From Prochlorococcus sp. AG-442-N07 (GTDB taxonomy: Bacteria > Cyanobacteriota > Cyanobacteriia > PCC-6307 > Cyanobiaceae), in NCBI GenBank assembly GCA_003209675.1, contig QCPX01000008.1:3429-67428 (forward strand): 64,000 nucleotides of DNA. Direction: 5' to 3'. The stretch's first letter is position 1. Each line of letters begins with the position of its first letter. The notes beneath the pieces were generated by a model, which ran no database searches, was not told the origin of the DNA, and saw only the letters and a list, made by a program, of their open reading frames with translations. Positions 43,213 through 54,310 of this stretch are shown piece after piece. The position numbers and the translations under genes were made by a program.

Positions 43213-44070
43213 TTATTTAATTTCAAGAGGTTTGATTTCCCAGGATAAAGTATTTTCTAGATTATTTTTTCCTATGAAGTTTCCTGTAATTACAGAGGTT
43301 AAATTAGATTTAGAAGAAGATACTAATGTTAAATATCTTTCGTCTATTAATCCTTTTCCGCTTGGATCAAAACCTCTCCAACCAGCACCTGGAATGTATA
43401 ACTCAGCCCAAGCATGTAAATCTAACTCAGAGGGCAATGGATCTTCAAAATGATAACCACTTACAAATCTACTTGGGATACCAATAGACCTACAAGCTTC
43501 AACCATGAGCATTGCTAAATCTCTGCATGAACCTATACGTTCTTTAAGTGTTCTGCTCGCTGGCCATGCAGGACCTGTATGTCTTTTTGTATATTTAACC
43601 CGATCTTGAATAATCTCTATAAGTTGGTAAGTAAATGATAATGCGTTATTAAAACTTCCTGCTAATGCTTCTTGGGCAAGTTCAACTGCAGAGGGATCGT
43701 GCTGTCCATTTGGCATCCATCCCTCTAATGCCCCTTGTAAATCTCTGTTTATGATACTTCTGCAAAAAGGTAATGTTAGATCTCTATTTTTTACCCCATC
43801 AATAATATTTGGATGTTTAATGGTCTCAACTTCGCTTATTGATTCAATAATTAAATTATCTGTTGCTCCATTGAATCTAATTCGATTAATCTCTTCGCCA
43901 CTTGCAGCAAGTAATGGATAAATAATTTCTGGTTCTGGGGTTATTTTTAATTCAAAATTCTTCAGATTTTGGAATCCATTTGACCTTGGCTTTATACACA
44001 ATCTATGCTCGCCTAATTGAACAGGTTCTTCATATTTATATTCAAGTTTGTGAAGGTATTTAATTCTCAT
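43213..44070 (-). CDS. Transglutaminase-like protein with N-terminal bacterial TGase domain
   Basis: Catalytic GSCRD, RFVSGY, HAWAE and GWRGFDPS motifs. Confidence 0.92.
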   Translation of the reverse strand: MRIKYLHKLEYKYEEPVQLGEHRLCIKPRSNGFQNLKNFELKITPEPEIIYPLLAASGEEINRIRFNGATDNLIIESISEVETIKHPNIIDGVKNRDLTLPFCRSIINRDLQGALEGWMPNGQHDPSAVELAQEALAGSFNNALSFTYQLIEIIQDRVKYTKRHTGPAWPASRTLKERIGSCRDLAMLMVEACRSIGIPSRFVSGYHFEDPLPSELDLHAWAELYIPGAGWRGFDPSGKGLIDERYLTLVSSSKSNLTSVITGNFIGKNNLENTLSWEIKPLEIK

Positions 44071-44081
44071 TAAAAAACTTA

Positions 44082-45023
44082 TTAATTGATAAAGTATTTT
44101 TCTTGAATGAGATCATTTAATTTATTCAAATCAATTTGCAATGAATCGATTGCCTCATGTAAACCATCATTAATTATATCTTCAATTCTGATATAACTCC
44201 ACTTTGCTTTGAGCAAGCCTCTCATGCATTCTAATTCGGAAGGATTTTCAGGAGGAGGAGAGGTATCTATCATCTTAAGAGTATTGCTTATCCCATCAAG
44301 ACAGTATCTTATTGATCTCGGGAAAATTGGATCCAGTAAAAGGAATCTTGCAACTGATTCAGGCTTAATAGAATTTTGCTCTGCTTTCCTAAACATTTGA
44401 TAAGCTCCAGCGGAACGTAAAAGAGCGATCCATTGCAACTCATCAAGAACACCTCCAAGTTCATCTAGGCTGGGGAGAAGTAAATAATATTTAACATCTA
44501 AAATTCTCGATGTTTTATCAGCTCTCTCAACTAATCTTCCAAGAATGCTAAATCTCCAAGCAAGGTCTTTGCTTAAAGTCGCATCTGTAATTCCATAAAA
44601 AAGCTGACATGCTCTCCTTATTTCACTTAATTGTTCTTGTCTTGGCTTATTCCATATTGCTTCTCCTTCTTGCATATTCCAATATAAAATATTAATTTGC
44701 TCCCACATTTCTGTTGTCAACACGTCTCTTATTTGTCGTGCGTTTTCTCTAGCTAATTGAATACAAGAAATTATGCTGTTTGGATTTAAACGATCTCTTA
44801 TTAAAAAATTTATAACGTCATCAGGCTTTTTTTCTGGGAATCTTTTATCAAAAGATTCTCTGTCGCTTGAAGCATCAATTAACGGGAGCCAAGGTTCTGC
44901 ACTTCCTGGTGGACAATCTAATGACATTGCTTCACTTACTTCCACAAAACGAGATATATTTTCTGCTCGTTCTAAATAACGATTGATCCAATAAAGAGAT
45001 TCTGCTACACGACTTAAAAGCAT
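44082..45023 (-). CDS. Alpha-E domain protein (DUF403)
   Basis: MLLSRVAESLYWINRYLERAEN, second ERAD repeat, FPRSI. Confidence 0.93.
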   Translation of the reverse strand: MLLSRVAESLYWINRYLERAENISRFVEVSEAMSLDCPPGSAEPWLPLIDASSDRESFDKRFPEKKPDDVINFLIRDRLNPNSIISCIQLARENARQIRDVLTTEMWEQINILYWNMQEGEAIWNKPRQEQLSEIRRACQLFYGITDATLSKDLAWRFSILGRLVERADKTSRILDVKYYLLLPSLDELGGVLDELQWIALLRSAGAYQMFRKAEQNSIKPESVARFLLLDPIFPRSIRYCLDGISNTLKMIDTSPPPENPSELECMRGLLKAKWSYIRIEDIINDGLHEAIDSLQIDLNKLNDLIQEKYFIN

Positions 45024-45024
45024 A

Positions 45025-46467
45025 TTATTTACCTACAACCCATGTATCTTTGCATCCTCCACCTTGAGAAGAGTTTACAACTAATGATCCTTTTTTTAAT
45101 GCTACCCTCGTAAGCCCACCTGGACTAACCCATGAATCTTTTCCTCTCAAGATATATGGTCTTAAATCAACATGGCATGGATATAGTTCTCCATCACATA
45201 ACGATGGTACAGTAGATAATTCTAATGTTGGTTGTGCTACGAAATTTCTAGGATTTTTTCTAATTTTATTAGCAAATTCCTCTATTTCACTGCTTGTTGA
45301 GTGAGGCCCAATTAACATTCCATATCCACCAGCTTCAGCGACAGACTTAACAACAAGTTTTGGTAAATTTTCTAGAACGTATTCCCGATCCTTTTCGTAA
45401 TGACAAATATATGTTTCTACATTTTTAATAATAATTTCTTCATCAAGATAATATTTAATCATTTTTGGAACAAAAGAATAAATCATTTTGTCATCTGCTA
45501 TTCCAGTCCCAGGTGCATTTGCTAAAGCAACATGACCTGCTTTGAAAACATCAAGTAATCCGCTAACACCCAGGCAGGAATCTTTTCTAAAATTAAGAGG
45601 ATCTAAAAAATCATCATCAATTCGTCTGTAAATGACATCTACCCTCTTTAAACCGGAGGTAGTTTTTAAATATACATAATTATCATTACAAATTAAGTCA
45701 TGACCCTGTACTAATTGGATGCCCATTTCTTGCGCTAAATAACTATGTTCAAAATATGCACTATTAAAAATTCCTGGAGTTAGTAGAACTATTTTGGGAG
45801 TGTCTGTCCAAACAGCAAGTTCTTGAAGAGTTTTTAAAAGATATGATGGATATTCATCAATTGGTTTTACTATTCTTCCAGAAAAAAGATTAGGGAAAAT
45901 ATTTTTCATAACTAATCTATTTTCTAAAAAATAAGCAACCCCAGAAGGACACCTTAAATTATCTTCTAAAACATGCCAATCTCCTTTTCTGTCCCTTATT
46001 AAATCAAGTCCCGAAATTTGACACCATTTATTTAATGGAGGTTTGAAACCTATCATTTGAGGTCTCCAACCTTCTGAACTCTCGATTAACTCTCTTGGAA
46101 TTATTCCATCATTAATTATATTTTGAGAATTATAAATATCGTCTAGGAATAAATCAATTGCCTCAAGCCTTTGTTTTAGGCCTTTTTCTAATGTTACCCA
46201 ATCATCTTTACTTATTATTCTTGGCAGTGGATCAAAAGGTAATATTCTCTCAGTACCTTTTAAACCTGTATCGTTTAATCTGAAAGTGGCACCATGTCTT
46301 AATAATAATTTTTTTGCTGCAGAATGATTCCTGTTTAACTCTTCAAGACCCATATTATCTAAAGAGGATAGAAGTGGAATTAATATTTCTCTTGCAGAGT
46401 TGACGTTATCTTTAAAGTATTCATCAAAACTATTTTTTGGACGATAGCTTGAAAACATATATTTCAT
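45025..46467 (-). CDS. Circularly permuted type 2 ATP-grasp protein (DUF404/407)
   Basis: PFDPLPR, VLEDNLRCPSG, RVDVIYRRIDD, NAPGTG, HVDLRPY and VVNSSQGGGCKDTWV motifs. Confidence 0.93.
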   Translation of the reverse strand: MKYMFSSYRPKNSFDEYFKDNVNSAREILIPLLSSLDNMGLEELNRNHSAAKKLLLRHGATFRLNDTGLKGTERILPFDPLPRIISKDDWVTLEKGLKQRLEAIDLFLDDIYNSQNIINDGIIPRELIESSEGWRPQMIGFKPPLNKWCQISGLDLIRDRKGDWHVLEDNLRCPSGVAYFLENRLVMKNIFPNLFSGRIVKPIDEYPSYLLKTLQELAVWTDTPKIVLLTPGIFNSAYFEHSYLAQEMGIQLVQGHDLICNDNYVYLKTTSGLKRVDVIYRRIDDDFLDPLNFRKDSCLGVSGLLDVFKAGHVALANAPGTGIADDKMIYSFVPKMIKYYLDEEIIIKNVETYICHYEKDREYVLENLPKLVVKSVAEAGGYGMLIGPHSTSSEIEEFANKIRKNPRNFVAQPTLELSTVPSLCDGELYPCHVDLRPYILRGKDSWVSPGGLTRVALKKGSLVVNSSQGGGCKDTWVVGK

Positions 46468-47119: not shown

Positions 47120-47395
47120 TTATGAAAGTGTTTCTTTGGTAATTATGATTAAAGTACTATTTGCTTGATAATTTTTATTAGGAGGATTTATTTGATTTTT
47201 AATTAAAAAAATAAAAGTATATATCAACGGTAGAAGTAATGATGACGCTGCAACTAAAGCAATTATCTGGTTCAACCTAATAAATGGTTTTTTTACAAGA
47301 TCCTCTCCGCACAAGCCACAAATCAAATTACCTTTTGAGGATTGTTTTTGAAATTGATATTTAGGATTGCAATATGGGCAATAATATCGAACCAT
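47120..47395 (-). CDS. Zinc-ribbon protein with C-terminal TM helix
   Basis: CPYC-x17-CGLC followed by a hydrophobic helix. Confidence 0.7.
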   Translation of the reverse strand: MVRYYCPYCNPKYQFQKQSSKGNLICGLCGEDLVKKPFIRLNQIIALVAASSLLLPLIYTFIFLIKNQINPPNKNYQANSTLIIITKETLS

Positions 47396-48128: not shown

Positions 48129-49202
48129 TTACTTAAATCCCTTTGAAAAAAGGTTAGTACGAACTTTAAATTTCCATACATTTACAACACCTTTTGCATT
48201 GACTGCTGCAAGTGCACAATCATCAGGTCTCCAAGATATTGCCCCTACTAAATCTCCTGCGAATGCAGCCCCAACGGGATCACCATTACCGTCATTTTTG
48301 AGAAAACTTGCGACAACAGAACCATCCCTAGATCCTGAGGCTACAAGCATACCTTTATTTGAAAAGGCTAGGCTCGAAATGGGTTCTGTATGGTGACATA
48401 GCTCTCCTGGCATAGTCCCTTCAGGACCATTTCCTATAAAGCTCCATACTGTAATTCTTTCACTGCCACTAGTTGCTAATAATTTTCCGCTGTCATCAAA
48501 AGAAAGATGACTTGGTTTACCAGGATATCCAGTCATTTCAGCATCCATTCCTGATGATCTTCTCCAAAAATGAACTGAATTGTCTTGACTCCCACAGGCG
48601 ACTATATCTCCATCAGGGCTTAATTCCATAGAGACCAATGATCCTTGCCACTCCAGTTTTTGATTCGTTTTATTATTAACAATGTCAAAGAATGTCACTC
48701 TGCCGTAGCATGCAGTTGCGAGCTCATTTTTATTTGACCATGTTATTGCACTTACTGTGCTTGGATGGTCTTCTGAGATCCATTTCTCTTCTCCAATTTC
48801 ATTAAAAACATATACTTTTTTTGAGGAGGCTATCGCTAGAAATAAACCGTTATTAGACCACTTGAGGTGTTCTACCCAACCCTTACCAAGATTAAGTGTT
48901 TTAATTAATTTACCTTCGTGGCAATTACAAATTTGAACATTTCCATCCTGACCTGATGTTGCAAAAATCTCACCCTCTGGATGAATGGCCATTGCTAATA
49001 GACCACCGGAGTGTGTATTTTCTTTTTTCCAAATAATTTTTCCAGTATCTCCTTCGAACGAAAAAAGACCTCCTGATACGTCGCCAACAATAAATTGTTT
49101 CCCTTTAAGAGCCCAGCCACATGCTATGGCGTAATCGTTAACTTCAGCAGTCCATCCTTCATGGAACATGCCTCTTGGGCTAAATGGTTCTATATCAGGC
49201 AT
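48129..49202 (-). CDS. WD40-repeat beta-propeller protein
   Basis: Repeated H...A..GQDG.V.I, SQDNSVHFW, SRDGSV and VNVWK units; overlaps the cobW-like stop by 13 nt. Confidence 0.9.
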   Translation of the reverse strand: MPDIEPFSPRGMFHEGWTAEVNDYAIACGWALKGKQFIVGDVSGGLFSFEGDTGKIIWKKENTHSGGLLAMAIHPEGEIFATSGQDGNVQICNCHEGKLIKTLNLGKGWVEHLKWSNNGLFLAIASSKKVYVFNEIGEEKWISEDHPSTVSAITWSNKNELATACYGRVTFFDIVNNKTNQKLEWQGSLVSMELSPDGDIVACGSQDNSVHFWRRSSGMDAEMTGYPGKPSHLSFDDSGKLLATSGSERITVWSFIGNGPEGTMPGELCHHTEPISSLAFSNKGMLVASGSRDGSVVASFLKNDGNGDPVGAAFAGDLVGAISWRPDDCALAAVNAKGVVNVWKFKVRTNLFSKGFK

Positions 49203-50539
49203 TTATCAAAGCCTTCTTGCATCTCTTTCTCATTTAAATTTCTACCGATAAAAACAAGTTGATTTCTACGAGGTTCGTTACCCCATTCTTTATCAGGTTG
49301 TGCAGTAAATAACATGTGAACTCCCTGGAAAACTATTCTCCTTGGGTTACCTGAGTAACTTATGAAACCTTTAGTTCTGAATATATCCACTCCTTTTTCT
49401 GATAGAAGTCTTCCCATCCAAGTATTTAGTTTTTCTGGGTCAACATCTCCAAAACGCTCTATAGCAATTGAGCCTACTTCATCATCATGTTCGTGCTCTG
49501 CTTGCCAGAATCTTTCAGTATTAAATGAAATCTCTTTATTTTCGTCACTTTTAATGACTTTCATATTGAATTCTTCAGCAGTGTGCTGTGTAAACAAACC
49601 TATTTTTGTTGGTTTTTCTATGTTCAGGATGAAGGATTTATTTCCTTTATCCTCCAATTTGAGATTTATATGTTCTCCATATGGGACGGTATTTCCAGGA
49701 TCTAAACTATTAGCTTTTTCTGCATAAAGTCTCACGGAGGATTCAGCACCATCTTTAAGTTCCTCTTCACTCTCTCCTTGGTTAGCGAGGGCTACTAAGG
49801 ACATTTCTGGATCGGGTCCTTCTTCTAGCATTAATTCATATTTACCTGCATCAAGATCGTAAACACCTGTCCATTCAAAAGGATATTCTGGTTCAAGGAA
49901 TGTTGGCCTGCGTTTAAGGATCTGATCAAGATCAAATGCACTTAGATTTAAGACTGTTTCAATTGGTACTTTGGCATTCTCGGCTCTAATAATTCGGGTC
50001 ATTCGGTTCATATCTCTCAATCTCGATTCAAGAGTATTTAGTGCATCATCAGAGACTAAATCAGTTTTATTAAGGACAAGAACATCTGCAAATGCCACTT
50101 GTTCTGAACTTTCATCACTCCTGCCTAGCTGTTGATCAATGTGGGCAGCATCAACTAAAGTCACAATTCCATCAAGAGTGAATTCAGAACTAATCTCTTC
50201 ATCCATGAAAAATGTCTGAGCAACTGGGCCTGGATCTGCTAATCCTGTCGTTTCTACTAAAACATAGTCAAACTTATCTCTTCTTTTCATAAGGTTGCCA
50301 AGGACTCTTATTAAATCACCGCGAACAGTACAACAAATGCACCCGTTTGACATCTCAAACACTTCTTCATCGGCATTAATTACGAGCCCTTGATCTATAC
50401 CCACTTCACCGTATTCATTTTCAATTACGGCTATTCTTTTCCCGTGCTCTTCACTTAGTATTCTATTAAGCAAAGTAGTCTTCCCTGAACCTAAAAATCC
50501 AGTGAGAATAGTAACGGGAACTTTATCTTGGATGCTCAT
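49190..50539 (-). CDS. COG0523/CobW-type G3E metallochaperone GTPase with an inserted ~125-aa domain
   Basis: TGFLGSGKTT, NEYGE, GCICC metal motif, ETTG, NKTD; CobW_C (FRTKG, QGVH, LVFIGRNL). Confidence 0.93.
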   Translation of the reverse strand: MSIQDKVPVTILTGFLGSGKTTLLNRILSEEHGKRIAVIENEYGEVGIDQGLVINADEEVFEMSNGCICCTVRGDLIRVLGNLMKRRDKFDYVLVETTGLADPGPVAQTFFMDEEISSEFTLDGIVTLVDAAHIDQQLGRSDESSEQVAFADVLVLNKTDLVSDDALNTLESRLRDMNRMTRIIRAENAKVPIETVLNLSAFDLDQILKRRPTFLEPEYPFEWTGVYDLDAGKYELMLEEGPDPEMSLVALANQGESEEELKDGAESSVRLYAEKANSLDPGNTVPYGEHINLKLEDKGNKSFILNIEKPTKIGLFTQHTAEEFNMKVIKSDENKEISFNTERFWQAEHEHDDEVGSIAIERFGDVDPEKLNTWMGRLLSEKGVDIFRTKGFISYSGNPRRIVFQGVHMLFTAQPDKEWGNEPRRNQLVFIGRNLNEKEMQEGFDKCLI

Positions 50540-50591
50540 TTACTGATTTTTACTAAATAAACAATAGTTTAATAATAGTAATAATTAGAAA

Positions 50592-50606
50592 TGAAAACCG
50601 TTTTTA
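50592..50606. promoter_or_regulatory. Putative Zur box upstream of the cobW-like gene
   Basis: 7-1-7 near-palindrome TGAAAAC-C-GTTTTTA flanked by AA/TT, 53 nt upstream of the cobW-like ATG. Confidence 0.5.
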
Positions 50607-50616
50607 TTAGAAAAAT

Positions 50617-52152
50617 TTAATCTGAAAGTTTGTACCATTCAGACTCAAGATTGGAGCCAGATTCTTTATCGCAGCTTCCACCTAATGAATCAACAATTGT
50701 ACAAGTGTTGTGTACAGCTACTGTAATAGTATTACCATCCATCATCAATCCATCAACAAATATTTGATCAGGAGAAATAGGAATAGAACTTTGTCTGCTT
50801 AGATTTCTTAACAGTTTGGAAGCAGGTTTTTGCTCTGGGAAAAGAGCCAAAACATTATCTTCTTTAAGTTCTTTAAGTACAGACTTTATATTTTCCGGTC
50901 TTAAGCTTGAGGAGTCTCCAAGAAAGTCAAGTAAACTAATGGTTTCAAAACCAAAAGCATCACCGTAGTATTCCATCGCCTTGTGTTTAGACACAATTAC
51001 TCTGTTCTCCTCAGGAATGGAACCTACTTGTTCGACGATCCAACTATCCAAGTCTTCCAAGATAGAATCAGCCTTTTCAAATCTTTCATTAATTTGCTTT
51101 CTTATGCTTCTCTTGGAAGCATCCTTCTTTAAACTTTCGTTTATAACATTTCCCATTTTTATAATGTTATGAGGATCATGCCAGACATGAGGATCTAGTC
51201 CTCCATGGTCATGATGATGATGACCCTCTCCTTCATCTGGTACTTGTGCTATCGGCTCTACATCACTATTCAATGCGTCTTTAAAAAAGTGCTCATTTGC
51301 CTCAAACTCAAAAGGCATGTGTTCAGTAAAAAATGTGTACTGACCATCTTCTTTAATTTCAACGTTGAAAACTGTGCTTTCTTTTCGTTGATCAAAGTTA
51401 AGCACAAAAGCTTTATTACTTGCTGTAAGAGTCCCATTATTATTTCTCCTTGTTGAGAATCTAGATCCTAATAGTTCTTTAGCTAAATCTTCCGACCCCT
51501 CTATGTCAATAGATTTTAGAATTACCATTTTCATTGCAGGATCTGCATATTCGCCATCAACTTTTGCGAATGACCATTTGTAGGATCCTTTAGATAACTG
51601 GAATTTACCTGCCCATTCGAAAGCTCCTTCAGCATGGTCATCATGTCCACCATGATCTGAGTGATCATCGTGACCTCCATGATCAGAGTGATCGTCATGA
51701 CCTCCATGATCAGAGTGGTCATCTATCTTAGCTGAATGTTCAGCGTGATCATCATGTCCCGCATGATCAGAGTGGTCATCTACATTTATTGCGCTAACGC
51801 CTATAACAACTGTTTGCTTTTTGCTTTCCCAATTTCTCATACTTGGAGTCATTTCTTTACCAAGAGTGAATACTTTATCGGCGTTATTAAGTAATTGAGC
51901 TTGTCTTGGATTGATCTTAAAGTCATGAACATCCTGCTTTCTATCTACTAAGCATGTAACTTCGTCAGAAGGTAATGCAATTGATTTAACTAAATCACAA
52001 ACTAGTGGTTCTACTGCTACGTATGACTTTCCCTTAGCCAAAACATCTTGCCCAAAACCAGAAAATATTATTGTTCCTGCTATCACGGAATTTTTGATAA
52101 TTGAATTACTTGAACTTGTTTTATTTGTTAAAAGTCTTTCCAAAATTGACAT
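50617..52152 (-). CDS. znuA: Zn/Mn (cluster A-I) ABC transporter substrate-binding protein with His/Asp repeats and an inserted domain
   Basis: QDVHDF, DPHVWHDP and VSKHKAMEYY ligand motifs; long His-rich loop; Zur box upstream. Confidence 0.85.
   Translation of the reverse strand: MSILERLLTNKTSSSNSIIKNSVIAGTIIFSGFGQDVLAKGKSYVAVEPLVCDLVKSIALPSDEVTCLVDRKQDVHDFKINPRQAQLLNNADKVFTLGKEMTPSMRNWESKKQTVVIGVSAINVDDHSDHAGHDDHAEHSAKIDDHSDHGGHDDHSDHGGHDDHSDHGGHDDHAEGAFEWAGKFQLSKGSYKWSFAKVDGEYADPAMKMVILKSIDIEGSEDLAKELLGSRFSTRRNNNGTLTASNKAFVLNFDQRKESTVFNVEIKEDGQYTFFTEHMPFEFEANEHFFKDALNSDVEPIAQVPDEGEGHHHHDHGGLDPHVWHDPHNIIKMGNVINESLKKDASKRSIRKQINERFEKADSILEDLDSWIVEQVGSIPEENRVIVSKHKAMEYYGDAFGFETISLLDFLGDSSSLRPENIKSVLKELKEDNVLALFPEQKPASKLLRNLSRQSSIPISPDQIFVDGLMMDGNTITVAVHNTCTIVDSLGGSCDKESGSNLESEWYKLSD
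51634..51780 (-). repeat. 27-nt coding tandem repeat (DDHSDHGGH units)
   Basis: Three near-identical 27-nt units in tandem plus degenerate flanking copies encoding DDHSDHAGH and DDHAEH. Confidence 0.9.
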
Positions 52153-52176: not shown

Positions 52177-52191
52177 TGATAATCATTTTCA
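52177..52191. promoter_or_regulatory. Zur box in the divergent znuA/znuC promoter
   Basis: TGATAAT-C-ATTTTCA, one mismatch from the cyanobacterial TGATAATNATTATCA 7-1-7 consensus, with AA/TT flanks; 25 nt from the znuA start. Confidence 0.8.
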
Positions 52192-52287: not shown

Positions 52288-53058
52288 ATGGCTACTTTAG
52301 TCGCTGAAAATTTAACCTACTCATACACAAAAAAAAGTAAGCCAGTTTTAAGTAAGGTATCGGTTGAGATTAAACCTGGTACTCTAACAGCGCTAGTTGG
52401 TCCAAACGGAGCTGGCAAATCTACTCTTTTAAGAATATTGCAGGGACAATGTATTCCGGATAATGGCCAGATAACAATTGATGGGGAGAAGTTAATTAGA
52501 CAAAGATCTCAAGTCTCACTTATGCCACAAAGAAGCTCTATGAATTGGAAATTTCCAATAACTGTAGAAAAACTAGTTTCATTAGGACAAATAAAATACT
52601 CAAAATCAAAAAGTAGTAGTCCTTTTCAAATAAAAGCTCTTCTTGCCAACCCTAATGCATGGATTAATAAATGCTGTGAACTAGAGGCCACAATGCAAAG
52701 AGTCGGCATTGCAAATATTGCTAACAGAAGGCTTGATTCTTTATCTGGGGGACAACAACAAAGAGCTTTATTAGCCAAAACATTAATGTCTCCAGCAAAA
52801 ATTTACCTTCTTGATGAACCTTGTGCAGCTTTAGATCCACCTGCAAAGGAGGATTTTCTAAAAATTGTTCGTCAACTTGCTGATGCTGGTCTTTCTTTAA
52901 TGGTAAGCAGTCATGATTGGGGCACTTCGTTAAATAGTTATGATCAAGTTATTGTTTTGGATAAAGCTGTATTGGCCTCTGGAAGCCCTGATTCTATAAA
53001 AGATAAATTAGAGGATATAAATATCAGCTCAATTGAGGATAATAGTTGTTGTGATTAA
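52288..53058 (+). CDS. znuC: Metal ABC transporter ATP-binding protein
   Basis: GPNGAGKST, LSGGQQQR, LLDEP and SSHD motifs; Cys-containing tail. Confidence 0.88.
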   Translation: MATLVAENLTYSYTKKSKPVLSKVSVEIKPGTLTALVGPNGAGKSTLLRILQGQCIPDNGQITIDGEKLIRQRSQVSLMPQRSSMNWKFPITVEKLVSLGQIKYSKSKSSSPFQIKALLANPNAWINKCCELEATMQRVGIANIANRRLDSLSGGQQQRALLAKTLMSPAKIYLLDEPCAALDPPAKEDFLKIVRQLADAGLSLMVSSHDWGTSLNSYDQVIVLDKAVLASGSPDSIKDKLEDINISSIEDNSCCD

Positions 53059-53072
53059 AAAAATATTTAGTT

Positions 53073-53507
53073 TTAACTTTGTGCTTGATAGCAGTTCTGG
53101 CAAAGTCCAAAATACTCCAGGGTATGAAACAACAATTGGAATTTCTTTGGATTTGTTTTGGGTGTATGAATATCTTTTACAGGGCACCCTTCCATTTTTG
53201 ATGTCTCACCACATTGAACACAAGTCAAATGATGAATGTCTCTGTCTACGGGAGTGTAAAGAACCTCTCCTGTTGGGAGATGTCTAGAACGTATTAAACC
53301 ATGCTTTATAAGAACTTGAAGATTCCTGTAAACAGTTGTCAGTCCCATAGCTTTTCCGCTTTCAATCAATTGTCTATGCAACTCTTGACCGCTCAGTTCA
53401 TCATCACATTTATTAAGTTCTTCAAGAAGTTGTTCTTGTCTTTTGGTAATGTCAGGCTTAGTTACCATTGTTTCCGAAATTTTTTTTTGTTCCGTATTTT
53501 TGATCAT
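53073..53507 (-). CDS. zur: Fur-family regulator, Zur
   Basis: TTVYRNL HTH, HHLTCVQC and GLCQNC; lies inside the znu cluster. The true start could be the internal Met (MVTKPD). Confidence 0.88.
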   Translation of the reverse strand: MIKNTEQKKISETMVTKPDITKRQEQLLEELNKCDDELSGQELHRQLIESGKAMGLTTVYRNLQVLIKHGLIRSRHLPTGEVLYTPVDRDIHHLTCVQCGETSKMEGCPVKDIHTPKTNPKKFQLLFHTLEYFGLCQNCYQAQS

Positions 53508-53521
53508 ACCGAATCCTTAGA

Positions 53522-54310
53522 TTGATGTCTTTTATTAATAGCAGTTGGTGGTTTGTTCCTTTAATAATAACTATTTTTTCAGGAATTCTATGTCCAGCTA
53601 TGGGAACTGTATTAATAACACATAGGAGATTACTGCAAGTAAATTTAATTTCTCACTGCGTTTTGCCAGGGCTTGCTTTAGCATTGGCCCTTGGAATTCA
53701 TCCTTCAATTGGTGGGGTTATCAGTGGTCTTTTAGGTTCTGTAATTGCAGAAAGTTTAACTAATAAAAAGAGTGAAAACTATGAAGCAATAATGAACACA
53801 ATATTAGCCGGAATGCTTGGGTTTGGAGTCCTTATAATCCCTCTACTCGGAATAAGGATTGATTTGGAGGCAGTATTATTTGGCGATTTATTGACAGCAA
53901 ATTTTGGAGATTTACTTAGAACAATAATTGCTTTTTTAGTATTTATACTTTTAATGACTTTTGGATATGAAAAGGTTGTTTATGTTGGATTAGATCCAGA
54001 AGGTGCATCCGCGAGTGGTATAAACGTTTCTTTATTAAATCTTGCTTTGAGTTTTACAACGGCATTAGTAATTGTTAGTTCAATGTCAGCAGTGGGAGTA
54101 ATTCTTGTAATTGCTCTTCTTTCTACGCCAACTTTGTTAGGGCTAAATAAGGCTCATAGTTTAAGAATTGCAATGATGAGGTCTTCATTTTTTGGATTAT
54201 GTATCTCACTTCTTGGATTTATTCTCTCTATAGTCTTTAATCTTTCGCCTGGACCTGCAATTAGCGTTATTTGTGTTGCGTCCCTTTTAATTCCTAAGCT
54301 TCGCAAATAA
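53522..54310 (+). CDS. znuB: Metal ABC transporter permease
   Basis: SHCVLPG, LFGDLL, DPEGASASG and VGVILVIALL motifs. Confidence 0.88.
   Translation: MMSFINSSWWFVPLIITIFSGILCPAMGTVLITHRRLLQVNLISHCVLPGLALALALGIHPSIGGVISGLLGSVIAESLTNKKSENYEAIMNTILAGMLGFGVLIIPLLGIRIDLEAVLFGDLLTANFGDLLRTIIAFLVFILLMTFGYEKVVYVGLDPEGASASGINVSLLNLALSFTTALVIVSSMSAVGVILVIALLSTPTLLGLNKAHSLRIAMMRSSFFGLCISLLGFILSIVFNLSPGPAISVICVASLLIPKLRK

Follow-up and report, generated by a model that had tools for sequence, protein, structure and literature searches.

A beta-rich domain shared by the ZnuA-type binding protein and the COG0523 GTPase of a Prochlorococcus zinc gene cluster recurs in diverse metal-handling proteins and may take part in metal capture

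The zinc gene cluster and its two insert-bearing proteins

The DNA analysed here (the window) is a stretch of 64,000 nucleotides (nt) from Prochlorococcus sp. AG-442-N07 (contig QCPX01000008.1, positions 3,429 to 67,428). Three genes stand in close array on its minus strand and encode a ZnuA-type binding protein, a COG0523 GTPase and a WD40 propeller. The znuC gene runs divergently from znuA, with zur and znuB on the same side, the three spanning 52288..54310 (Table 1). An initial annotation, made from the sequence alone, had proposed that one and the same domain is inserted in the binding protein and in the adjacent GTPase. It was found that the two inserts are homologous at the level of sequence comparison, and that the domain recurs in proteins that apparently share a role in metal handling.

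The binding protein matched PF01297 with 145.3 bits (cut-off 29; E = 3.1e-42), the match being broken into two stretches by the insert. Its metal ligands formed a His3Asp set (H76, H322, H390 and D467, in the columns of PsaA H67, H139, E205 and D280), resembling those of TroA and AztC. Among the NCBIfam equivalogs, AztC scored best but stayed below its cut-off (106.5 vs 350), and no other cut-off was reached either. The N-terminus was judged by eye to be Sec-type signal-like. Residues 111-312 stand in for ∼28 residues of PsaA-type proteins, immediately before the DPHxW ligand motif. By alignment, this is the slot of the His-rich loop in zinc-specific members of cluster A-I (PMC8786288).

The COG0523 protein exhibited a cobW domain at residues 8-184 (PF02492, 206 bits, E = 3.4e-61) and a CobW_C domain at residues 356-448 (PF07683, 86 bits, E = 1.9e-24), together with the Walker A motif GSGKTT and the CxCC motif GCICC. 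Its residues 215-350 replace the 5-residue linker 215-219 of Escherichia coli YjiA. Both insertion points thus coincide with places where the hosts usually carry His-rich stretches, as indicated by the alignments, by PMC8786288 and by the relevant passages of Barnett, Millard, Ksibe, Scanlan, Schmid & Blindauer (2012, Front Microbiol 3:142, PMC3323870).

The coordinates and residues that the initial annotation had quoted for the inserts were exact on translation (ZnuA residue 178 begins at 51621, AFEWAGKFQLSKGSYKW; COG0523 residue 221 begins at 49879, PFEWTGVYDLDAGKYEL). The positions it had claimed also held, namely the linker of COG0523 in comparison with YjiA and the stretch before DPHxW of ZnuA in comparison with PsaA-type proteins. 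The flanking His clusters were as described: DDHSDHGGH repeats and HHHHDH in ZnuA, EHEHDDE in COG0523.

Table 1. Position of the zinc-cluster genes, the two domain copies and their flanking features in the window
Feature	Position	Strand	Basis or remark
znuA-type cluster A-I metal-binding protein, 511 aa (amino acids)	50617..52152	-	Open reading frame (ORF); Pfam PF01297
Type-E domain copy in ZnuA, aa 175-296	51265..51630	-	Profile match in own genome, E = 8e-36
Conserved residues of the ZnuA copy: E179, W180, G182, G200, Y202, D204, M207, L251, H278, E282, F283, E284, H288			
His/Asp-rich tandem repeat DDHSDHGGH in znuA, 27-nt period, ∼5 copies	51628..51783	-	Tandem Repeats Finder
HHHHDH cluster, ZnuA aa 311-316	51205..51222	-	Between domain and DPHVWHDP metal-site motif; translation and alignment
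COG0523 GTPase, 449 aa	49190..50539	-	Pfam PF02492, PF07683; YjiA match E = 7.6e-62
Whole insert of COG0523, aa 215-350	49490..49897	-	Alignment with E. coli YjiA
Folded type-C domain copy in COG0523, aa 217-335	49535-49891	-	Profile match in own genome, E = 9.1e-41
Conserved residues of the COG0523 copy: E222, W223, G225, G241, D243, M246, L293, H319, E323, F324			
EHEHDDE acidic/His stretch	49478..49498	-	Directly after COG0523 insert; translation
WD40 beta-propeller gene	48129..49202	-	Pfam WD40 families; start overlaps COG0523 gene end by 13 nt
Zur-box-like 7-1-7 palindrome TGATAATCATTTTCA	52177..52191	+	Between divergent znuA and znuC
znuC	52288-53058	+	Pfam ABC_tran
zur / FUR-family regulator	53073-53507	-	Pfam FUR
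znuB	53522-54310	+	Pfam ABC-3

Homology of the two inserts

The motifs reported as shared, FEWxG, GxY, DPxM, F..I and FT(E/Q)H...EF, were all present in the same order in both inserts and were invariant in a 22-sequence alignment of both hosts. This alignment contained 17 invariant columns, including those of FEW.G, G.Y, DP.M and H...EF. The two inserts are 21 % identical, and a direct BLASTP comparison gave E = 6e-5 over the first 35 residues. The Smith-Waterman score was 65, compared with 28.6 ± 5.1 for shuffled sequences (z = 7.2), and none of 2000 shuffles was as good; an end-gap-free global alignment gave z = 6.1. When the alignments of the ZnuA and COG0523 inserts were compared with each other by hhalign, a probability of 97.6 % (E = 2.9e-12) was obtained over 100 aligned columns. 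By these sequence comparisons, the inserts were confirmed to be homologous copies of one domain.

The suggestion that the copies are too diverged for a recent duplication held, given their low identity and their separation at the deepest split of the domain tree (see below). As they fall in different branches, they are old members that were acquired separately rather than products of a local duplication. An origin of the FTxH..EF motif from the HxAFxY ligand strand of the binding protein itself was also considered and was rejected, the PDB match to a PsaA-type adhesin ('TQHTAFSYL') having a non-significant E of 1.9.

Predicted fold and absence from domain catalogues

The ZnuA copy (residues 175-300) was modelled by AlphaFold with an alignment of 80 sequences of diverse members. 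The model was a beta-sandwich of eight strands with one main helix (model residues 43-55) and a second, short one (106-109); its predicted local distance difference test score (pLDDT) was 96.3 and its predicted template modelling score (pTM) 0.89. The description of the insert as beta-rich was therefore borne out by the model. The whole COG0523 protein, modelled from a single sequence, gave an uninformative result (pLDDT 32). The domain is acidic, with a median isoelectric point of about 4.4. It was predicted with high confidence to be an autonomous unit of ∼115-120 residues that folds on its own.

No Pfam-A or NCBIfam match at E <= 1 was found over the insert in either host. When 80 diverse members were scanned singly against Pfam-A and NCBIfam, no family was matched by more than five of them, and the family concerned had a best E of 0.0047. 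The domain profile gave nothing significant against PDB sequences (best E = 1.4). A Foldseek search of the PDB with the model gave no match at E <= 0.001, the best being 0.041, with a template modelling score (TM-score) <= 0.42 among the matches listed, and a Foldseek search of BFVD, which holds predicted viral structures, gave no significant match. The inserts belong to a real domain family that is apparently unnamed, lacks a solved relative and is associated with metal handling.

Host range and distribution

The domain profile was searched against 1.84 billion representative proteins, yielding 522 clusters at E <= 1e-3, of which 177 reached E <= 1e-10. Hosts were classified for the best 150 clusters by local searches and Pfam. 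The domain was found in ZnuA-type binding proteins (one to three copies), in COG0523 GTPases, at the N-terminus of ZIP transporters (one or two copies), in a CDF exporter (after the cytoplasmic dimerisation domain), in one CbiM with an inserted copy, in one CbtA and in one membrane-fusion protein of the CusB/HlyD type. Relatives of the ZIP fusions were found in the dinoflagellate Prorocentrum cordatum as well as in a eukaryotic transcriptome of the MMETSP set. Many further proteins of 150-250 aa carried the domain with a hydrophobic N-terminus and His-rich tails. All identifiable hosts were metal transporters, adaptors or chaperones, except for one protein with weak TPR matches.

The domain was accordingly shown, at the level of sequence and domain searches, to have been inserted or fused independently into ZnuA, COG0523, ZIP, CDF, CbiM, CbtA and CusB-type proteins. 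The claim that it is mobile held, as the profile retrieved at least seven unrelated host families, located on both sides of the membrane.

A 1723-aa surface protein with PKD and a T9SS (type IX secretion system) tail (P0311) was rejected as a host, because the remote match covered profile positions 2-40 only and no full domain was found locally. In the same protein, the FEWxG hairpin region (the first ∼40 profile positions) was matched seven times; these matches may reflect either very strong divergence from the domain or an unrelated repetitive element that resembles the first hairpin.

The genome under study holds only two copies. Among 301 sampled genomes of the phylum, 15 carried the domain. 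Both the ZnuA and the COG0523 copy were present in the genome under study, in the four other sampled genomes of the genus and in three genomes from three other genera of the family. Seven genomes of more distant families had one copy each, five of these copies lying in open frames of ∼450 aa. In this sample, six other genera of the same family lacked the domain, no match was seen among the listed genomes of the same class outside the family, and 266 further genomes gave no match.

Two subtypes and the conserved residues

A maximum-likelihood tree was built from 144 domain instances, and conservation was calculated over the same set. The tree separated two groups, of 36 and 108 instances. The smaller, mostly cytoplasmic group comprised the COG0523 copies, the CDF copy and one CusB adaptor, and was characterised by the motif GPDP. 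The larger comprised ZnuA, ZIP, CbiM and most of the unassigned proteins, whose hosts are periplasmic or transporters; it exhibited a YADP motif, a second hairpin longer by four residues and an additional conserved EFExxxH tail. The window holds one copy of each subtype.

Four potential ligand residues stood out: a Glu conserved in 97 % of the instances (E179 in ZnuA, E222 in COG0523), an Asp in 87 % (D204, D243), a His in 98 % (H278, H319) and a second Glu in 94 % (E282, E323). A Met was conserved in 85 % (M207, M246). The ZnuA/ZIP subtype had an additional Glu (E284) and His (H288), at 91 % each. In the model, the first Glu was located at the very start of strand 1 and the His-x3-Glu pair just past the last long strand. 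Because an inserted domain must bring both its ends together, these residues are probably neighbours and would lie beside the flanking His-rich linkers.

A His/Asp-rich repeat in the slot of a domain copy

Alignment with the ∼612-aa Prochlorococcus ZnuA proteins (P0003, P0115) indicated that the DDHSDHGGH repeat of the window ZnuA fills the slot of their first domain copy. Two tandem domain copies were present in 114 of the 121 ZnuA-type sequences examined. The highest-scoring relatives were of this ∼612-aa form (e.g. P0003, 612 aa), although their top rank is inflated because the scores of both copies add up. One copy plus the repeat, as in the window, was found in all 73 ZnuA ORFs from the 80 most similar Prochlorococcus loci, including MIT 9322, SS51 and MIT 9107. 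This exchange suggests that the first domain copy and the His-rich repeat may be functionally interchangeable. As a folded copy and a His-rich repeat share one slot in close relatives, both probably do the same job, for which the evidence is indirect.

The DDHSDHGGH tract looks like a fast-evolving, slippage-prone element by which the His-rich linker is tuned. Between close Prochlorococcus the repeat length varied, with 8-18 His in the 70 residues preceding the domain, and the znuA ORFs of the 80 similar loci ranged from 498 to 542 aa (ORFs cut by a contig end left out).

The GTPase-WD40 gene pair and the Zur context

The gene order znuC-znuB-znuA-COG0523-WD40 and the identical 13-nt overlap between the last two genes were found in two other bacterial genomes, one of which is labelled as a metagenome-assembled genome (MAG) of Pseudomonadales. 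The overlaps lie at 49190-49202 in the window, at 7359-7371 in L003 and at 7353-7365 in L004. The ZnuA proteins of these two genomes are short (277-297 aa), and Pfam matched only the ZnuA body in them. Between Prochlorococcus and the Pseudomonadales MAG, the COG0523 GTPases were 74 % identical over the full length without gaps, and the WD40 proteins 55 % identical; the EHEHDDE stretch was found in the Pseudomonadales homologue too. The insert-bearing GTPase and the WD40 protein are thus a conserved two-gene unit, and the history of the ZnuA insert is a separate one. The conserved gene pair, together with the patchy distribution of the domain, suggests that the unit moves between phyla by horizontal transfer. 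At the Pseudomonadales locus, a further COG0523 gene, of normal length (399 aa; L004 2200-3399), was observed just upstream of znuC, so that insert-bearing and insert-free forms coexist in one zinc cluster.

The cluster had been called Zur-controlled, and the evidence agreed with this: zur, znuC and znuB adjoin it, and the interval that separates znuA from znuC holds the best Zur-box-like palindrome of the window. This palindrome, TGATAATCATTTTCA, has one imperfect position and was the sole site within one mismatch of TGATAATNATTATCA in the 64-kb window. A Prochlorococcus Zur box was placed in the same znuA-znuC intergenic region in the pertinent part of Barnett et al. (2012, PMC3323870). In Synechococcus WH8102, the orthologous cluster is Zur-repressed and induced by low zinc, including two 'uncharacterised' genes after znuA (PMC9337993); this regulation ties the hosts of the domain to zinc.

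Two neighbouring features were recorded downstream. A 91-aa ORF (47120-47395, minus strand), ∼730 bp downstream of the WD40 gene, has an N-terminal CxxC...CxxC pattern, a hydrophobic C-terminal segment and a weak Zn-ribbon match (E = 7.6e-4), and contains a Zur-box-like site with 2 mismatches (47166-47180). At 43213-46467 on the minus strand, downstream of the metal cluster, a gene for a circularly permuted ATP-grasp protein (PF14403/PF04174, E = 3e-161) is the first in a cluster of three, with no relation to the inserted domain.

Discussion

One of the two inserts has been seen before. In the relevant passages of Barnett et al. (2012, PMC3323870), a non-His insert of ∼150 aa was noted in 'branch 1a' of the cyanobacterial COG0523 proteins. 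It corresponds to the COG0523 copy described here: the window gene likewise has a His-poor insert that separates the GTPase domain from the C-terminal one, a WD-40 gene immediately downstream, which is a conserved neighbour, and a zur/znuABC neighbourhood. For the published insert, 4-6 strands and 1-2 helices had been predicted, and InterPro gave no match. Those passages treat the insert as a peculiarity of one COG0523 branch, without a link to ZnuA, ZIP, CDF, CbiM, CbtA or CusB, and give neither its fold nor its conserved residues. In the searchable literature, no link of the COG0523 insert to ZnuA, ZIP or other hosts was found, nor a fold or an analysis of conserved residues, and a search by the motif strings of the domain returned nothing relevant. 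A possible known relative, the diatom protein ZCRP-B (Kellogg et al. 2022), was rejected, as it is NikA-like and distinct from this domain. What is new here is the domain family and its host range; accessory metal domains as such were already known.

Among such known elements, the His-rich loop of zinc-specific cluster A-I proteins (Synechocystis ZnuA, PDB 1PQ4/2OV1/2OV3; E. coli ZnuA) has the same insertion point, before DPHxW. Two roles have been suggested for this loop, an increase in the zinc concentration close to the cleft or regulation (PMC8786288). In the present lineage a His-rich repeat adjoins the domain and takes the place of one of its copies. Unlike the loop, which is a short, disordered, His-rich stretch, the domain is, in the model, a folded beta-sandwich of 120 residues that conserves carboxylates and a single His, or two His in the ZnuA/ZIP subtype.

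The ZinT-like domain of streptococcal AdcA (PDB 7JJ9) is likewise a folded accessory metal-binding domain on a cluster A-I zinc-binding protein, and AdcA was among the PDB relatives of the ZnuA body of the window. It is fused C-terminally, in contrast to the insertion in a loop described here, and no ZinT match to the domain emerged from Pfam, from the search of PDB sequences or from the 50 best matches listed by Foldseek. The fold of ZinT is lipocalin-like. The CorA/MopE-type surface copper-binding proteins of methanotrophs (PDB 4BZ4) are also beta-rich secreted metal-capture proteins. Of the 50 best matches listed by Foldseek, 4BZ4 alone was metal-related; this match was not significant (E = 0.06, TM-score 0.35, root-mean-square deviation about 10 A), and these proteins have no sequence relation to the domain. 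The nearest systems in function are therefore the ZnuA His-rich loop and the AdcA ZinT-like domain, neither of which is related to it in sequence or fold.

The initial annotation had proposed a metal-binding or hand-off module. Such an accessory role on transporters and chaperones is the interpretation favoured here, at a probability of roughly 0.6, and it was strengthened by the host range, by the four nearly invariant residues of ligand type and by the natural exchange of a domain copy for a His-rich repeat. E179, D204, H278 and E282 of ZnuA, and E222, D243, H319 and E323 of COG0523, would form a site for Zn(II), possibly also for Co(II), beside the His-rich linkers. In ZnuA, the domain might catch scarce metal and pass it on to the primary His3Asp site, as a folded counterpart to the flexible His-rich loop that would do this job in other ZnuA proteins. 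The COG0523 copy, located between the GTPase domain with its CxCC site and the C-terminal domain, might hold or present the metal during GTP-dependent transfer, and would probably act with its translationally coupled WD40 partner. The tie of the domain to Zn/Co scavenging in oligotrophic water, also put forward in the initial annotation, is plausible.

Several points weigh against a capture and hand-off role, or limit it. For every member of the domain family metal binding is inferred, and the spatial clustering of the four residues is argued only from where they lie, close to both ends of an inserted domain. Alternatively, the conserved residues might make up a structural ion site or a hydrogen-bond network. 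One periplasmic host of the CusB type bears the 'cytoplasmic' subtype, which means that the split by compartment is not clean. The cobalt/nickel hosts (CbiM, CbtA) and the copper-type host (CusB) imply that the domain is not zinc-specific by association. The specificity of the binding protein itself is debated (Zn or Mn, with effects of Fe stress and Co; PMC8786288). These hosts and this uncertainty together argue against a strict zinc specificity of the domain.

A different possibility is that the domain is a docking module that binds no metal and tethers COG0523 to the WD40 protein, and the periplasmic hosts to a permease, to an outer-membrane component or to a second binding protein. Beta-sandwiches are common interaction modules, and the high, ungapped identity of the COG0523 proteins of Prochlorococcus and the Pseudomonadales MAG is as for a partner-constrained surface. 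The overlapping WD40 gene, moreover, always follows the insert-bearing COG0523 gene, even where ZnuA has no insert (in part from the pertinent passages of Barnett et al. 2012). Docking was nevertheless judged unlikely: no common partner is evident across the ZIP, CDF, CbiM, CbtA and CusB hosts, the best-conserved polar residues are classic metal ligands, the domain interchanges in position with a His-rich repeat, and the genome under study, with two copies only, offers no further candidate that could be paired through the domain.

The domain might also bind metal as a sensor or brake rather than as a supplier, its occupancy altering host activity allosterically. Such a mode of action has been proposed for the His-rich loop of ZnuA and, in CDF exporters, for the C-terminal domain in the cytoplasm. 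That the domain occurs on exporters (the CDF C-terminus, the CusB adaptor) and not on importers alone is more readily explained by regulation than by capture, and a regulatory role was suggested for the Synechocystis ZnuA loop (title of Wei et al. 2007, cited in PMC8786288). The repetition of the domain in tandem (two or three times in ZnuA, twice on ZIP) and its stand-alone secreted forms with His-rich tails, however, look less like a switch than like added capacity or capture, and a sensor role was considered quite improbable. As for a chance or compositional match of acidic linkers, or a recent duplication or gene conversion between the neighbouring genes, the 35-residue BLASTP match alone would leave room for it, but such an origin could practically be dismissed in view of the shuffle and profile-profile results, the retrieval of both hosts and hundreds more by a single profile, the 21 % identity and deep separation of the copies, and the COG0523 copy in Pseudomonadales without any ZnuA copy.

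The capture and hand-off role can be extended to a broader proposal, to which we would give slightly less than even odds: that this is an uncatalogued metal-binding fold with a Glu-Asp-His-Glu site, to which the ZnuA/ZIP subtype would add another Glu and His, serving general Zn(II)/Co(II) capture and hand-off on both membrane faces, and taken up, each time independently, by systems of the ABC, ZIP, CDF, ECF and RND-adaptor types as well as by the COG0523 chaperone.

The domain bears on the question of how zinc is taken up and routed at the very low concentrations of the open ocean, and its COG0523 copy on the handling of metal by these chaperones, which is poorly understood. As a defined, foldable module of 120 residues, it is a concrete object that can be expressed for binding, structural and deletion experiments. 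A family profile would annotate a stretch that has been left blank in hundreds of protein clusters, and could mark genes of trace-metal acquisition in metagenomes. It is found on importers and exporters alike and on a chaperone, and its bearers include a phototroph that ranks with the most abundant in the sea as well as the ZIP transporters of dinoflagellates. If the broader proposal were true, the occurrence of one metal-binding fold in Prochlorococcus and in dinoflagellates would point to a shared answer of marine plankton to very low zinc.

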